Assembly: GCA_963849325.1 (NCBI GenBank)
Contig: CAWKHF010000005.1
Span: 1,088,001-1,152,000 of the forward strand
Source: an uncultured Planctomycetota bacterium
GTDB taxonomy: Bacteria; Planctomycetota; Planctomycetia; Gemmatales; Gemmataceae
DNA length: 64,000 nt
Direction of reading: 5' to 3'
Shown: piece by piece, positions 529 to 61,252 of the stretch
How positions within the stretch are numbered: position 1 is the first letter of the stretch
Layout: every line of letters begins with the position of its first letter
The notes under the pieces: generated by a model
What the model was told of the DNA's origin: nothing
What the model saw: only the letters and a program-made list of their open reading frames with translations
The model's database searches: none
Translations under genes and position numbers: made by a program

Positions 529-2563
529 TTACTTCCTCTTCGCCGCCCTGGCTTCGAGGTACATCCCCAGCGCGTCGGCCAGGGCGGTCAGACTGCCCGG
601 ATTGGTCTTCAGCGGGACGGCCAGCGCCTTGAAGGTCTTCTCCGCCCATTCGGCGTAGCGCTCCTCGCCGGTCTTCGTCCACAGGCGGACCAGGTTGCGC
701 GCGGCGACGCTGTTGCTGGCCGGCTGGGCGCCGTCGTACTGCTCCTTGCTGCGGGCGAACAGCTTTTCGTGATCGTTGGACGTGTAGAAGAAGCCGCCGT
801 GCTCCTTGTCGCCGTGAAACTCGGACCATGATGTCCGTCAGCGTCTTCGCCTCGTCGAGCCAGCGCTTTTCGCCGGTCGCGTCGTGCAGGCCGAGCAGGC
901 CATGCACCAGGAAGGCGTAATCGTCGAGGTAGCCGTTGAGACGGGCCTCCGCCTTCTGTCCGGGAGCGGCGCCGTAGGTCCGCAGCAGTCGGCCGTCCTT
1001 GGTCCGCAAGGTCTGCAGCACGAAGTCGGCGGCGCGCACCGCGCTCTCGATCGGCTTCTTCTCGCCCAGCGCCTGCCCGGCGGCCGCCAGGCCGGCGATC
1101 ATCTGTCCGTTCCACGCCGTCAGCACCTTCGTGTCGAGGAACGGTCGCGGCCGCTTCGCCCGCACTCGAAAGAGCTTCTCGCGCAGAGGGGCGAGCCGCG
1201 CTTCGAGTTGCTCTTCCGTCATCTCGCGGTCCTTCGCCTGCTCGGCGAGCGGACGCGGCAGGGTCAGGATGTGATAGCGCGACTCGAAATTCGGCCTCGC
1301 CGTCCGCCCCGTAGACCTGTTTGAACAAATCCGTCTGCCCCTTGTCCGAGAGGACGGCGTCGATCTCCTTCGCGGTCCAGACGTAGAAGCGACCCTCCTC
1401 GCCCTCTGAGTCGGCGTCGAGCGCGGAATAAAATCCGCCCTCCGGCGAGGTCATCTCGCGGCCGATGAAGGCGATGGTTTGCTCCAGGACGCGCCGGTAT
1501 TGCGGCTTCTTCGTGGTCCGGTAGGCGTCGGCGTAGACCTCGCAGAGCTGGGCGTTGTCGTACAGCATCTTCTCGAAGTGCGGCACGGTCCAGGTGCGTT
1601 CGGTGCTGTAGCGATGGAAGCCGCCGCCGAGCTGATCGTAGATGCCGCCGCGCGCCATGTGGTCGAGCGTGACGGCGACCATGTCGTCGAGTTCCTTGGC
1701 GCGGTCCTTCGACTGACGCGCCGCGCCTCGTGCTGGAGCAGGGCCAGGCGCGACGGCATCGGGAACTTGGGGCCGCGGAAGTCGCGGGCCGGCGAGCCGA
1801 AACCGCCGTACTTGGGATCGAAGCTCTCCTTGACCTCGTCCACGGCCGCGTCGACGAGGTCGCGGTTGAGATCGAGGATCGCCGTGCCGCGCACCAGGCC
1901 TTCCAGGGCCGTACTGGTCTTCTCGGCGTTCTGGTCGGCCAGCTCCCGAACTTCCTTGGGCTTGTCCGTCCAGGCGTCCTGAACGATCTTGAAGGATGGT
2001 CTTGAAGCCGCGTACCTTGCCGCCCTCGAGCTCCTTGTCCTCGGGCGGCCAGTAGGTGCCGCCGAAGACCGGCTTGCCGTCGGCGCGTGAGGAACATCGA
2101 CAGCGGCCAGCCGCCGTTCTGCCGCGGCGGCATGACCTGCATGGCCGTCATGTAGACGTTGTCGATGTCCGGCCGTTCCTCGCGATCGACTTTGATGCAG
2201 ACGAAATCGCGGTTGAGGAGCTTGGCGATCTCCTCGTTCTCGAACGACTCGCGCTCCATGACGTGGCACCAGTGGCAGGAGCTGTAGCCGATCGACAGGA
2301 AGACGAGCTTGCCTTCCTTCTTGGCCTTGGCGAACGCTTCCTCGCCCCAGGGATACCAGTCCACGGGATTGTGGGCGTGCTGGAGGAGATAGGGGCTGGT
2401 CTCGCGGGCCAGGCGGTTGCTGTGCTTGGCCTTGGACGCGGGATTGGCCGGCGGTTCGGCCTCGGGGCTTGTCGGGGTCGGCCGGAACCATGTGGGCCAG
2501 CAGAAGGACCAGCATGCCCAATGTCAGGCCGCGGCGGAGCCAGCGCCACGTCGTTCGCAACAT
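529..2563 (-). CDS. Thioredoxin-domain protein YyaL/SPATA20 (DUF255) family, frameshifted in this sequence
   Basis: Motifs [65 protein letters not shown] and GYLDDYAF distributed over several frames. Confidence 0.9.
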
Positions 2564-9783: not shown

Positions 9784-9896
9784 ATCTTATCTCTCCCGGC
9801 GCACGCCGGGTAGGAGGTAGCACCAGCATCCCCCTTGCGGAGGACCGGTTGCTGTGGCTTCACAGGGCCTAATCCCTCAGCCACTCTGGATAAGAT
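9784..9896 (-). promoter_or_regulatory. SAM-I (S-box) riboswitch
   Basis: Minus strand ATCTTATCCAGAG-TGGCTGAGGGATTAGGCCCTGTGAAGCCA-CAGCAACC...GGTGCTACCTCC...GAGAGATAAGAT matches SAM-I P1, kink-turn, pseudoknot and GCAACC motifs. Confidence 0.92.
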
Positions 9897-18032: not shown

Positions 18033-18108
18033 CCGGATGTAGGAGAGCCTGGTTGCATCCGCCGGCCCTGGAAGCCGGACCACGCTGGTTCAAATCCAGC
18101 CATCCGGA
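18033..18108 (+). tRNA. tRNA-Pro(TGG)-like, non-canonical anticodon loop
   Basis: Acceptor CCGGATG/CATCCGG plus A73; anticodon stem CCGGC/GCCGG with loop CCTGGAA; T-arm GCTGG TTCAAAT CCAGC; no encoded CCA. Confidence 0.75.
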
Positions 18109-18116
18109 CTGCATAC

Positions 18117-18202
18117 GGAAGGGCGAGCCAATTGGCGATGGCACCCCGCTCGAAACGGGGCGAGGCCGCAAGCCCTTGAGGGTTCGACTCCCTCTCCTTC
18201 CG
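18117..18202 (+). tRNA. tRNA-Ser(CGA)
   Basis: Acceptor GGAAGGG/TCCTTCC plus G73; CCCCG CTCGAAA CGGGG; long variable arm; GAGGG TTCGACT CCCTC; C at position 8. Confidence 0.85.
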
Positions 18203-60583: not shown

Positions 60584-61191
60584 AAAGTCCACGGGCCGGC
60601 CTGTAAGCCGGGTCCTGTCCCGCGTCGAGCGCGGGGACGGTCATTTCTCTGGTCTGCCGGTTGCCCGGCAGCTTAAGCGACCTACCCGAGGGTCGTAACG
60701 GGCCGGACCAGCCCTGCCCCCTTATTTGGTCTTGCTCCCGGTGGGGTTTGCCGAGCCAGCCTGTCACCAGGCTGCTGGTGCGCTCTTACTAAAAGTCTCC
60801 GCCAACTCTGCCGCCCTTTACTGGATGTACCTGTGCAAATAGGTGCTATTGAAGTAGAGCCGGACGGTTCCCATCGGCCGCTTCCATCGTGAGAAACGCT
60901 TCCTGCCTCATCTTGGTTACATCCTCGCAAAGGGCGGCAGAGTCAACGAAGACTCGCACCTTTTCACCCTTACCTGATCCCGGCTAGAGCCGGGCCATCG
61001 GCGGTATCCTTTCTGTTGCACTTTCCCGGTCCTTCGTTCATCCCCCTCCCGATGGGAGAAGGGGAACTTCGGACGGTGGGCGTTACCCACCACCGCGTCC
61101 TGTGGAGCCCGGACTTTCCTCCCTCCGCTTCCCCGCCGAGGGGTCTCGGCGGCTTGGCGGACAGCGACCGTCCGGCCGACCCGTGGACTTT
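60584..61191 (-). ncRNA. rnpB: RNase P RNA (type A) with a large insertion
   Basis: GAGGAAAGTCCGGGCTCC, GGAAAGTGCAACAGAAA, GGGTGAAAAGGTGCG, GTAAGAGCGCACC, GGCAAACCCC and ACAGGACCCGGCTTA; P1 GTCCACGGG/CCCGTGGAC; TATAAT at 61196-61201. Confidence 0.96.
60790..60954 (-). other. 165-nt insertion in the rnpB P13 loop, closed by a 28-bp stem
   Basis: Splits conserved GGTGCG|GTAAGAGCGCACC; arms 60794-60821 and 60927-60954 are complementary. Confidence 0.9.
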
Positions 61192-61252
61192 CGCTATTAT
61201 AGCGGACAGCGGGCAAGCGGGGGCGGTTCGGGAGAAGAGGACGAATCCGGAC

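Follow-up and report, generated by a model that had tools for sequence, protein, structure and literature searches.

The window analysed here is a 64,000-nt stretch of DNA from a member of the Gemmataceae, and it carries a bacterial type A RNase P RNA gene (rnpB) at 60588..61183 on the minus strand, the strand on which all features described below lie. The Rfam model RF00010 (RNaseP_bact_a) matched the minus strand from 61183 to 60588 over the whole of the model (positions 1-367) with 223.4 bits and an E-value of 3.3e-71, against a gathering score of 100, and the RNA has the type A helices P4, P10-P14 and P15-P18. In the Rfam alignment, the P13 strands GGUGCG (60955..60960) and CGCACC (60777..60782) are separated by 172 nt versus 7 nt in the model, the extra nucleotides in L13 amounting to 165 (60790-60954). 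Directly after GGUGCG, the insert begins with a 5' arm, AGUCUUCGUUGACUCUGCCGCCCUUUGC (60927..60954), which pairs over 28 bp with a 3' arm, GUAAAGGGCGGCAGAGUUGGCGGAGACU (60794..60821). The 4-nt linker UUUA (60790..60793) leads from the 3' arm to the native L13 loop GUAAGAG (60783..60789), which is intact and identical to that of relatives with an uninterrupted P13. The linker is common to all insert-bearing relatives found by the pattern search described below. Minimum free energy folds of the insert contain a second helix of 7 bp (5' strand GGAUGUA, 60918..60924, pairing with 60823-60829), and a small internal loop lies between it and the 28-bp stem.

All 28 arm positions form standard pairs, five of which (pairs 6, 9, 10, 11 and 27) are not Watson-Crick and are all G-U in the rnpB sense strand. 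The 28-bp duplex stacks directly on P13, and the insertion thus sits at a helix tip and has long-duplex ends. At the DNA level, a repeat search found the arms as an inverted repeat (60794-60819 / 60929-60954) that is 85% complementary. The fold of positions 60775-60970 reached -94.6 kcal/mol, versus -60.3 +/- 4.1 kcal/mol in 200 shuffled sequences, none of which folded as well (z -8.4). The 105-nt interior of the insert has a GC content of 52.4%, compared with 67.1% in the rest of rnpB and 65.3% in the window. A preliminary description of this DNA had claimed a 165-nt interruption of P13 right after GGTGCG, an uninterrupted 28-bp end helix departing from perfect complementarity only by G-U pairs, and an interior less GC-rich than its flanks, all of which held in the present analysis. 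The AGT that it noted at both borders is indeed present, but is trivial: at the left border it is part of the arm, and at the right border it is made up of the last linker base and the native GUAAGAG.

The preliminary description had also raised the possibility of a second intact rnpB elsewhere in the genome. A single RF00010 match was obtained genome-wide in the window's genome (G000), which makes the interrupted gene the sole copy found in the assembly. Since this genome has one rnpB, encodes rnpA and yielded no HARP, we take the rnpB with the 165-nt insert to be a working gene. Neither a target-site duplication nor a flanking direct repeat was found at the insert. In the 8.16-Mb assembly, there was no second copy of the insert; the search returned the self-match and 15 short hits (15-37 nt, E of at least 0.05), two of which were the insert's own arms matching one another on the opposite strand. 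The exact 165-nt form is known from one assembly, and none of the public sequencing runs contained the window's exact sequence, the best of them having no more than 0.20 of the sampled words.

Eight related loci, three from genomes and five from metagenomes, were collected with the sequence pattern GRAGACTTTTAGTAAGAGCGCACC, and in all eight the insert either stands immediately 3' of GGTGCG or the partial contig stops within the insert. A related Gemmataceae contig (L044) carries a 608-nt insert at the same site, with the same arms and an intact open reading frame (ORF) of 196 amino acids, and a partial locus (L051) has the same intact form. Three loci (L046, L047 and L050) have an insert of 123 nt, and three others (L045, L048 and L049) one of 32 nt. 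The deletion junctions of the short forms (165, 123 and 32 nt) differ, and these forms are thus products of independent deletions. The window's 5' arm is identical to that of L046 at 28 of 28 positions and to that of L044 at 27 of 28. Among the arms of the window, L044 and L046, five positions on four pairs vary, including one double compensatory change from C-G to U-A, and all 28 pairs remain standard in each. Contigs from soil RNA libraries vary at 60799, 60815 and 60820, with states already seen in these three sets of arms. In the intact element of L044, about 50 nt of non-coding sequence precede the start codon, the 3' arm is coding, and the ORF reads through the arm to a stop codon that lies in P14 of the host; more distant relatives appear to use the UAA of the native loop GUAAGAG as their stop. 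The intact ORF was found in one of 252 genomes of the family, once in that genome and in rnpB only. This genome (G006) has 6% contamination and contains a second, partial rnpB contig, and the rnpB with the full 608 nt may therefore not be the cell's sole working copy. Interrupted and uninterrupted P13 stems coexist in genera g40, g49, g57, g87, g88, g93 and g97. One fixed site, a presence/absence polymorphism and relics devoid of the ORF (in a size series of 608, 165, 123 and 32 nt), which are the marks of a homing cycle, were thus all found. Outside the family, a profile of the ORF had no match in 15 genomes of the sister family or in 400 sampled genomes of other Planctomycetota.

Both ends of the L044 ORF are recognisable in the window's insert. 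A remnant of the 5' end of this endonuclease-like ORF, of about 10 codons, lies at 60881..60911 and begins with an AUG at 60911-60909, as read by eye against the L044 ORF start, ATGAAGCAGGAACTGGTCATCACGGTGGAAG. It is followed at 60880..60881 by a deletion junction, at which, going by the insert sizes of 608 nt (L044) and 165 nt, about 443 nt of the L044 ORF are missing; across it, the ends of the ORF no longer share a reading frame. There is a GAAG microhomology at this junction, and two RNA-library contigs of a relative match the window as far as 60884, the GAAG edge. The last 21 codons of the ORF remain at 60818..60880 and end at a premature TAA (60820-60818) that falls within the 3' arm; in the intact element, this arm encodes the C-terminal residues of the protein. 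Positions 152-197 of the ORF-family profile matched the window at 60767-60904 with an E-value of 2.8e-11 and one internal TAA. From GGCTCTAC through the arm end, the window is identical to L044 at 58 of 68 positions and to L046 at 63 of 68.

The intact ORF is, judging from its substitution pattern, under strong purifying selection and functional: dN/dS between L044 and L051 is 0.084 over 125 codons, with a dS of 0.51. The encoded protein of L044 (P0001) has 13 homologues, down to 46% identity, and belongs to a family of 137 members. It combines an N-terminal helix-turn-helix (HTH) with a single LAGLIDADG-like domain, whose motif reads LEAMALGIWLGEG; W76, L77, G78, E79, G80 and T81 are invariant in the 13 sequences, and E79 and G80 occur in at least 90% of 77 family sequences. 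At the end of the motif helix there is thus a conserved acidic residue with Gly next to it, as in LAGLIDADG enzymes. A profile of the 77 sequences matched I-DmoI with an E-value of 6.6e-4, the only significant match outside the N-terminal HTH, and aligned GEG with the AEG of its second motif (GLYVAEGD). The AF2 model of P0001 has a mean pLDDT of 84. In VIA-align comparisons with this model, the endonuclease domain of the TliVMA intein ranked best (Z 8.4, rmsd 3.6, 94 aligned residues), followed by I-DmoI (6.8), E-DreI (6.5), WhiA (6.2, 5.7 and 5.6), I-Vdi141I (5.4), an intein endonuclease (5.3), I-Tsp061I (5.1) and I-MsoI (5.1). Ten of the eleven best rows have the LAGLIDADG fold, with Z from 8.4 to 5.1, which is middling by the tool's own scale, and the model together with these middling scores points to an alpha-beta-beta-alpha-beta-beta-alpha fold.

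Curated libraries miss this protein. P0001 had no match in Pfam or NCBIfam, and no Pfam LAGLIDADG family (LAGLIDADG_1/2/3) matched it or any of its 13 close homologues; one of 135 relatives gave a sub-threshold match to LAGLIDADG_3 (E-value 0.0037; 17.9 bits, the cut-off being 22.5). Because the curated profiles do not reach it, we regard P0001 as a divergent branch outside the curated LAGLIDADG families. Foldseek against the PDB gave nothing at E up to 0.001 (the best hit, with an E-value of 0.012, was unrelated), and neither phmmer nor the 13-sequence profile returned anything relevant from the PDB. The ESM Atlas offered only leads, in the form of unnamed or HTH clusters commonest in Omnitrophota and Minisyncoccota. 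Modelled as a homodimer, P0001 scored 0.76 versus 0.13 for the best control; three runs shared at least 86% of contacts, the partner pLDDT was at least 80, and the predicted interface is symmetric and formed by residues 66-79, the motif helix. Of 30 proteins solved as same-chain pairs, 20 reach the mark used here, compared with 1 of 23 single-chain structures, and the pass may reflect mere likeness to LAGLIDADG dimers, as these are among the solved structures. Considering the models, P0001 is predicted to be a homodimeric homing endonuclease, whose target would be rnpB alleles without the element.

Based on these results, we propose that the 165-nt insert is probably the degenerate relic of an intron-less intervening sequence that bore a homing endonuclease and occupied L13 of Gemmataceae rnpB. 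The intact element would consist of two pairing 28-nt arms, a short leader after the 5' arm and a gene of 196 codons, with no self-splicing core. The homodimeric endonuclease would cut rnpB genes that are free of the element, and repair would then copy the element in. The host would tolerate it because the arms zip up, re-closing P13, and leave the docking loop GUAAGAG in place, so that the ribozyme still folds. In the lineage of the window, the loss of about 443 nt, bounded by two GAAG repeats, would have taken out the middle of the gene and broken the frame. The remainder would be a long hairpin that protrudes from L13 in the sole RNase P RNA of the cell, presumably with no function of its own.

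Other readings of the locus were weighed against this proposal. The protein could be a domesticated LAGLIDADG factor, for instance a maturase or chaperone that helps the interrupted ribozyme, or a DNA-binding protein like WhiA, in which case the relic would reflect a lost function. WhiA, a non-nuclease protein with LAGLIDADG and HTH domains, is indeed among the fold matches listed above, and the strong selection on the ORF would suit a host function. To our knowledge, WhiA does not have the LAGLIDADG catalytic residues, whereas the E79 of P0001 is conserved in its family and aligns with the Glu of the second I-DmoI motif. LAGLIDADG proteins can act as RNA maturases, according to PMC11270868, but three independent losses of the gene and its intactness in a single genome of the family are the pattern of a dispensable selfish gene, and we consider a domesticated factor improbable.

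A second alternative is a lineage-specific expansion, in which P13 would have grown at its present site and the insert would benefit RNase P, for example through extra tertiary contacts or protein binding, the ORF being a passenger or a chance frame. A greatly enlarged domain of this kind had been among the readings offered in the preliminary description, which also mentioned shorter P13 inserts in Gemmata. Such a small 'P13 insert' in Gemmata RNase P RNA was reportedly described by Butler and Fuerst in 2004 (IJSEM 54:1333, cited in PMC2858038, PMC4334474 and PMC9945441). In agreement with this, 16 of the 35 rnpB genes of relatives that were inspected have an insert of 15-19 nt, composed of a hairpin of 10-14 nt followed by UUAAU, at the same nucleotide as the element, i.e., directly 3' of the 5' strand of P13. 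Of 252 genomes of the family, 142 have the UUAAU-GUAAGAG junction, and a search for intermediates of 20-50 nt before UUAAU found none in the 252. The uniform size argues for a conserved native hairpin; it may have served the element as a landing pad, or it may be the last scar that the element left. This distribution favours growth in place, as do the very large P12 expansions that also occur in RNase P RNAs of the family and the pair-preserving changes by which the long stem is kept. On the other hand, the window's insert shares the position of the Gemmata-type insert but not its size (165 versus 15-19 nt), its stem (AGUCUUCG/CGGAGACU versus GGGGAC/GUCCC), its linker (UUUA versus UUAAU) or its neighbouring P13 pair (C-G versus G-C). 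Its interior consists of two ends of a protein gene, intact at the same site in a relative, that are joined out of frame and carry a premature stop, and an ORF with this dN/dS and family size is no chance frame. Three close relatives differ by independent deletion (608, 123 and 32 nt), unlike a functional RNA domain. In view of this, an expansion grown in place is very unlikely, and the enlarged domain of the preliminary description finds no support in the content of the insert.

Just as unlikely, in our assessment, is a true intron, whose excision and religation would depend on a self-splicing core that escaped recognition or on an enzyme of the host. LAGLIDADG genes reside mostly in introns or inteins, the top structural matches of P0001 include the archaeal intron enzymes I-DmoI, I-Vdi141I and I-Tsp061I, and an ORF held in the loop of a basal stem recalls the archaeal rRNA and tRNA introns that carry LAGLIDADG genes. 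In these archaeal introns, a splicing endonuclease cuts at a bulge-helix-bulge and the exons are ligated. By inspection, the rnpB element, unlike them, has no bulge-helix-bulge, since P13 is stacked directly on the arm at the 5' junction and the 3' junction has 11 single-stranded nt, and the splicing endonuclease PF01974 was not found in the 84.7%-complete genome. Models of group I and group II introns gave no match at E up to 1 in L044, nor did the group I model RF00028 in L044, L046, L051 and L045; besides RNase P, no Rfam family reached an E-value of 1e-4 in L044. The roughly 50 nt of non-coding sequence and a coding 3' arm offer too little room for a ribozyme core. Besides, contigs of a relative in RNA libraries span the 3' junction, from the ORF into P13/P14, although they extend only 29 nt beyond the junction and may stem from DNA carry-over. 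The remaining idea, a transposon or (as in the preliminary description) a domesticated MITE with 28-bp terminal inverted repeats, or else an assembly artefact, can practically be dismissed: the ends are an inverted repeat in the DNA and the N-terminal HTH resembles that of transposases with weak E-values, but the insert is single in its genome, as is the intact form in its own, it lies at a fixed rnpB site with no target duplication and with every imperfection a G-U in the sense strand, and its arms occur in several independent assemblies, the exact 165-nt form in one.

The distribution of the element among hosts is patchy. In a tree of the rnpB core, the element-bearing genes do not form one group; three changes are needed, at least two of them forced by well-supported branches, and a single clade of element-bearing genes was not rejected by the AU test (p 0.22). 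The elements of the window and L046 are 93-97% identical (63 of 68 and 37 of 38 positions), and ClpS of the L046 host is 62% identical to the window's, compared with 76-83% for ClpS of the window's congeners. Both genera include congeners that have, instead of the element, the P13 pair GGUGGG/CCCACC and the mini-hairpin, and the flanking P13 pair travels together with the element. Between L044 and L051, the dS of the ORF is 0.51, which is not far below the 0.84 of the neighbouring clpS, a clpS comparison that covers three loci only. The element may have spread horizontally, with these sequence comparisons pointing both ways.

The genome of the window encodes RNase III, and the 28-bp duplex may be cut by this enzyme, giving a ribozyme assembled from two pieces, or the hairpin may be retained in a continuous RNA of about 596 nt; we judge the two outcomes to have roughly equal chances. 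Four soil metatranscriptomes were examined as Logan contigs of mixed communities, in which RNA ends are not visible. Strong depth in these data derived from the conserved portions of rnpB in other organisms. Joints leaving out 163-165 nt (60789/60790-60954/60955) were considered as excision products and rejected; other letters (hairpins of 14-28 nt) stand between the two sides, and the joints are thus alleles of other species.

The closest known parallels are the endonuclease-bearing insertions in rRNA genes and the intervening sequences (IVSs) of 23S rRNA that are cut by RNase III. As described in PMC11270868 (2024), the former likewise lie in an essential structural-RNA gene and encode a single-domain LAGLIDADG-type protein, shown or predicted to be a homodimer, as is predicted here. 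Both they and the rnpB element are patchy, with ORF-less and fragmented forms, which that source interprets by a cycle of gain, degeneration and loss. They differ in the host gene (16S and 23S rRNA versus rnpB, here in the Planctomycetota), in the group I/II-like RNA, of which none was found in the rnpB element, and in the protein, to which an N-terminal HTH is added here and which the Pfam LAGLIDADG models fail to detect. In the same account, activity was demonstrated for I-ShaI, whereas the endonuclease of the rnpB element is predicted from sequence and model. Bacterial 23S rRNA IVSs, again according to PMC11270868, are cut out by RNase III with no religation and are thought to spread horizontally. 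They share with the rnpB element the position at a helix tip, the long end duplex, the sporadic occurrence and a host RNA that works; their excision and the fragmentation of the host RNA were demonstrated, whereas for the rnpB element both would be predictions, and the intact rnpB element differs from them in carrying an endonuclease-like gene. The preliminary description had suggested an rRNA-IVS-like element as a further reading, and this came closest, as the mobile-looking character, the helix tip and the long duplex ends all fit; the relic of an endonuclease gene was not foreseen in it.

RNase P RNA, a classic model in the study of how RNA is structured and evolves, is one of the two universal ribozymes. 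Insertions that bear endonucleases have been described in genes for rRNA, tRNA and proteins. A full-text literature search found no description of such an insertion in rnpB; one paper (PMC6582537) mentions both rnpB and homing endonucleases, in unrelated contexts. As a tentative extension of our proposal, possible but on balance doubtful, the Gemmataceae may harbour an undescribed class of intron-less homing elements in an RNase P stem-loop, whose arms would both re-close P13 and form an RNase III site, releasing the endonuclease mRNA and leaving a two-piece RNase P RNA. The palindromic DNA of P13 would be the target of the symmetric homodimer, the small P13 insert of 142 of the 252 genomes would be its footprint or landing pad, and distant members of the protein family would do likewise in tRNA genes.

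If the proposed origin of the insert is true, the specificity domain of RNase P can accommodate a translated insertion of 600 nt at L13, and a lineage-specific feature of the planctomycete RNase P RNA can be given an origin or a purpose. The series of 608, 165, 123, 32 and 19 nt in the Gemmataceae would then serve as a test of how much baggage the ribozyme can bear, and of two-piece function in vivo. The proposal would also add a divergent HTH-LAGLIDADG family, missed by profile libraries, with a presumably palindromic target in an RNA gene. For annotation, the insert would explain rnpB covariance matches that are split or under-scored as well as 'hypothetical proteins' called within rnpB; the rnpB of L044 was scored by RF00010 in two pieces, of 90 and 66 bits.

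The gene for RNase P RNA (rnpB) in the window matches the Rfam type-A RNase P model at full length (61183-60588, minus strand; 223.4 bits, E 3.3e-71), and the two strands of P13, GGUGCG (60960-60955) and CGCACC (60782-60777), are separated by 172 nt instead of the 7 nt of the model. The 165 extra nucleotides (60790-60954), which agree exactly with the interruption right after GGUGCG reported in the preliminary description, comprise a 28-nt 5' arm (60954-60927), a 105-nt interior (60926-60822), a complementary 28-nt 3' arm (60821-60794) and the 4-nt linker UUUA (60793-60790). The native L13 loop, GUAAGAG (60789-60783), follows untouched, all of these features lying on the minus strand. The uninterrupted end helix described earlier was recovered with all 28 of its 28 positions paired; its five departures are G-U pairs on the rnpB strand, which would become A-C mismatches if read on the opposite strand. 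The fold of 60775-60970 is much more stable than that of shuffled sequences (z -8.4), and the interior is indeed GC-poor (52.4% vs 67.1% for the remainder of rnpB). Taken with the homologous loci described below, we consider it probable that this insert is the relic of a homing-endonuclease-gene element in rnpB.

The idea of a repeat or domesticated MITE finds no backing, since a genome search with the 172-nt stretch recovered no second copy, the matches besides itself and arm against arm being of 15-26 nt with E ≥ 0.05. The possibility that a second intact rnpB would make this copy a pseudogene was likewise not borne out: a single rnpB was found in the 8.16-Mb, 14-contig assembly, rnpA is encoded there, and no HARP-type protein-only RNase P was detected in it (completeness 84.7%). 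Most probably, then, the interrupted gene is the one in use.

In a survey of relatives, 41 genomes were searched, 37 matched, and genes were taken from 34, giving 35 with the window. The P13 loop is uninterrupted (0-1 extra nt) in 16 of these 35 genes, while another 16 carry 15-19 extra nt, consisting of a 10-14-nt hairpin (e.g., GGGGAC-UUCG-GUCCC) and UUAAU directly after the P13 5' strand. The remaining three are the window (165 nt), a gene unplaceable by motif, and genome G001, whose 32-nt insert has ends resembling the window arms (AGUCUUCG ... CGGAGACU-UUUA). Because of this resemblance, the 3' junction was used as a pattern on public genome and metagenome contigs, yielding eight loci, of which two carry the title Gemmataceae bacterium, with the insertion nucleotide and the arms identical in placement in all eight. 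Locus L044 holds a 608-nt insert with an intact gene and L051, on a short contig, has the same form; the insert measures 123 nt in L046, L047 and L050, and 32 nt, as in G001, in L045, L048 and L049. Identical sequences met under other genome handles (L044 = L052, L046 = L058/L059, L045 = L038) were counted once.

The interior of L044 contains an open frame of 196 codons (888-1478, minus strand), the ATG of which lies 16 nt past the 5' arm; the 3' arm, linker, L13 and P13 supply its last codons, and a UGA in P14 ends it. The window interior matches the start of this ORF (AUG at 60911-60909, about 10 codons) and, beyond a break at 60881/60880, aligns with its last 21 codons. Besides, a profile of the ORF family matches window positions 60767-60904 (E 2.8e-11, with one internal TAA). 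The break sits at GAAG, present at both deletion ends in L044, and with a net 443 nt lost, the ORF ends no longer share a frame. Another junction (..GCAGG/CUCUAC..) is seen in the 123-nt form, and a third in the 32-nt form, where most of the arms are gone as well. One ancestral element was thus shortened by deletion three times independently. Two soil RNA-library contigs (658 and 230 nt; ~90-93% identical) align to the window up to 60884, starting at 60761 or 60795, and continue with 534 and 140 non-matching nucleotides, which is the expectation for a relative with an intact ORF placed on the deleted window.

Comparison of the window with L044 and L046 shows five variable arm positions, which fall on four pairs, and pairing stays standard throughout: A-U or G-C replaces G-U in three pairs, and in one a change on both sides turns C-G into U-A. 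The soil contigs carry the same arm states. The stem is thus under RNA-level selection; since the 3' arm is coding in the intact element and the 5' arm is not, conservation of the former may partly be protein-level.

The 196-aa product of the L044 ORF, P0001, has no Pfam or NCBIfam match. Its 13 close homologues (82-88% and 46-52% identity) are all labelled hypothetical, and 137 relatives were found at E ≤ 0.001 among 1.84 billion representatives. Between L044 and L051 the dN/dS is 0.084 (125 codons, dS 0.51), so the ORF is functional where intact. In the AlphaFold model (mean pLDDT 84), the N-terminal domain consists of three helices and the C-terminal domain is alpha/beta. Foldseek gave no match to the PDB at E ≤ 0.001 for this model; an exhaustive structural alignment ranked LAGLIDADG proteins on top, with Z values that the tool's own scale rates as middling: the TliVMA intein endonuclease domain (8.4; rmsd 3.6, 94 aligned), I-DmoI (6.8), E-DreI (6.5), WhiA (6.2, 5.7 and 5.6), I-Vdi141I (5.4), an intein endonuclease (5.3), I-Tsp061I and I-MsoI (both 5.1) and, lower, I-CreI (4.7) and I-CeuI (4.6). 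Residues 1-50 structurally match HTH DNA-binding domains, which are also recognisable at the N-terminus of many relatives. Independently of structure, a profile of 77 family members matches I-DmoI (E 6.6e-4) and aligns the family motif G-L-Y-x-G-E-G to its second LAGLIDADG motif; the Glu of this motif, E79, is invariant in the close homologues and near-invariant in the wide set. LAGLIDADG_3 gave even a sub-threshold match for just one of 135 relatives. Modelled as a homodimer, the protein clears its controls (0.76 vs 0.13), the motif helices (residues 66-79) packing symmetrically as in solved single-domain enzymes, a likeness that may be all that the pass reflects. We conclude that P0001 is a divergent HTH and single-LAGLIDADG protein and most likely a homodimeric endonuclease, its activity being a prediction. 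As a lead only, the nearest ESM Atlas clusters by language-model features are unnamed proteins of ~200-230 aa, commonest in Candidatus Omnitrophota, and clusters carrying HTH_23, found mostly in Minisyncoccota, a CPR phylum in which rRNA insertions with endonuclease genes are known.

Other close homologues sit in rnpB as well, judging from their termini. An N-terminal extension reading ..VRVFVDSAALC.. occurs in four of the 13 (P0003, P0005-P0007); it is what the P13 5' strand and 5' arm encode when translated in the manner of L044's GTG-started frame. The C-terminal tails of P0006, P0007 and P0013 (48% identical) read by eye as rnpB from P14 onward in another frame. The proteins P0009-P0011, P0015, P0016 and P0019 end in ..LM; the codons would be UUA-AUG, with the UAA of GUAAGAG as the stop, in other words the UUAAU-GUAAGAG junction found in mini-hairpin alleles. 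More distant homologues also occur near tRNA genes. In the region L055:1247-1915, one (profile E 5.5e-9; 211 aa from GTG, or ~170 aa from an ATG at 1366) directly follows tRNA-Glu(UUC) (1247-1321), and a partial copy of the tRNA T-arm and 3' end lies past the ORF (~1882-1915). L054 has this arrangement on the opposite strand. The layout suggests insertion of a related endonuclease gene at a tRNA gene, the 3' part of the target having been duplicated. In the region L056:1290-1915, a homologue (ORF 1363-1863, 166 aa) has a T-arm-like sequence, ..UUCGAAUCCCGUCGGGGUCA.., on both flanks, and an ARAGORN tRNA-Tyr (1824-1908), possibly a miscall, overlaps the ORF end.

The UUAAU-GUAAGAG junction is present in 142 of 252 Gemmataceae genomes (58 of 90 genera) and the uninterrupted P13 in 42 (27 genera), both coexisting within seven genera. 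None of the 252 genomes has 20-50 nt before UUAAU, and all 16 mini-hairpin genes inspected total 15-19 nt, a uniformity that suggests a conserved native hairpin rather than a random deletion scar. A 'P13 insert' is reportedly found in Gemmata, and we take it to be perhaps this mini-hairpin. The ..LM-stop ends of the distant ORFs link ORF-bearing elements to exactly this junction; the mini-hairpin may be the landing pad of the element or its footprint.

The intact ORF was found in one of the 252 Gemmataceae genomes, with relics in the window and G072; it was absent from 15 genomes of the sister family and from 400 sampled genomes of other Planctomycetota. By genome-tool grouping the element occurs in two genera, one with G000 (the genome of the window), G001 and G006, the other with G072. 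Congeners in both have the mini-hairpin and the P13 pair GGUGGG/CCCACC, whereas element-bearers have GGUGCG/CGCACC and a P14 that follows the host; the element thus seems to carry a few flanking bases along. The window and L046 elements are identical at 63/68 and 37/38 positions, while for ClpS, whose gene neighbours rnpB, identity is 62% between these hosts and 76-83% between the window and its congeners. On an insert-free rnpB tree the four element-bearing genes need three changes, well-supported branches forcing at least two. Against this, the AU test did not reject their grouping in one clade (p 0.22), and in the one comparable pair the ORF is not strikingly less diverged at synonymous sites (0.51) than clpS (0.84). 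Overall, horizontal spread is likely. In G006, the intact element (L052) is on contig C117, and a second, partial rnpB of mini-hairpin type (L043; model 14-318) is at the end of C347; with 6% contamination and a 10.6-Mb assembly, this bin may combine two populations.

An intron was rejected. No group I model matched L044 at E ≤ 1, nothing beyond RNase P matched it convincingly at permissive thresholds (the RNase P model giving two partial matches of 90 and 66 bits), and a few dozen nucleotides of the element are non-coding. Besides, no bulge-helix-bulge was seen at the insert junctions, and no splicing endonuclease gene was found in the window's genome (completeness 84.7%).

The insertion was shown to be site-specific and single-copy, to bear an ORF and pairing arms, and to decay by independent deletions with the arms kept. 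The protein would cut element-free rnpB alleles, repair then copying the element in, and the P13 hairpin would, as a DNA palindrome (6-bp arms, 7-bp spacer), suit a symmetric homodimer. L13 docks on P12 in RNase P RNA; by re-closing P13 the arms would let the ribozyme fold and leave GUAAGAG available for this docking. The relic in the window is probably neutral baggage. RNase III is encoded in the genome and the 28-bp duplex is a plausible substrate; a cut would leave two pieces (~230 and ~205 nt) that P13 and the stub of the stem hold together, and we regard this two-piece RNA and a continuous 596-nt RNA as about equally likely. On the RNA side, the sole hint comes from contigs of a relative that extend from the ORF over the 3' junction to no more than 29 nt past it, and these could be DNA carry-over or precursor.

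We know of no selfish element of this kind in rnpB, and no report of one appeared in the full-text literature, with few subscription journals covered; a homing-endonuclease relic there would greatly interest those who study RNase P or mobile elements. According to one report (PMC11270868), insertions in CPR rRNA genes encode single-domain, homodimeric LAGLIDADG enzymes and the IVSs of 23S rRNA are cut by RNase III. The rnpB element shares its logic with the former and its RNA architecture with the latter; with archaeal rRNA introns bearing I-DmoI-like genes it shares protein kinship. It differs from all three in its host gene, and from the CPR insertions and archaeal introns in being without a splicing apparatus. 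The rRNA-IVS-like element was the nearest of the earlier ideas, although its probable content, an endonuclease-gene relic, had not been foreseen.

Elsewhere in the window rnpB, at 61027-61074 and 61130-61165, P9 (36 nt vs 2 in the model) and P3 (20 extra nt) are also enlarged; P9 length variants are numerous among soil contigs, with joints skipping 34-46 nt. A TATAAT hexamer (61196-61201, minus strand), 13 nt upstream of the Rfam match start, may be the -10 box of the rnpB promoter, which in intact elements would drive the ORF too. P12 is hugely expanded in G009 (L041; gene of 654 nt) and G022 (L039; 514 nt) into long stems of tandem short repeats, GTGGTTA-type units pairing with TAACCAC in the former and GAGTGAC/GTGAAAA in the latter, a second, unrelated route of RNase P RNA growth in Gemmataceae. 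The window also holds an ordinary SAM-I riboswitch (9784-9896, minus strand; 84 bits) and two ordinary adjacent tRNA genes (18033-18108 and 18117-18202, plus strand).
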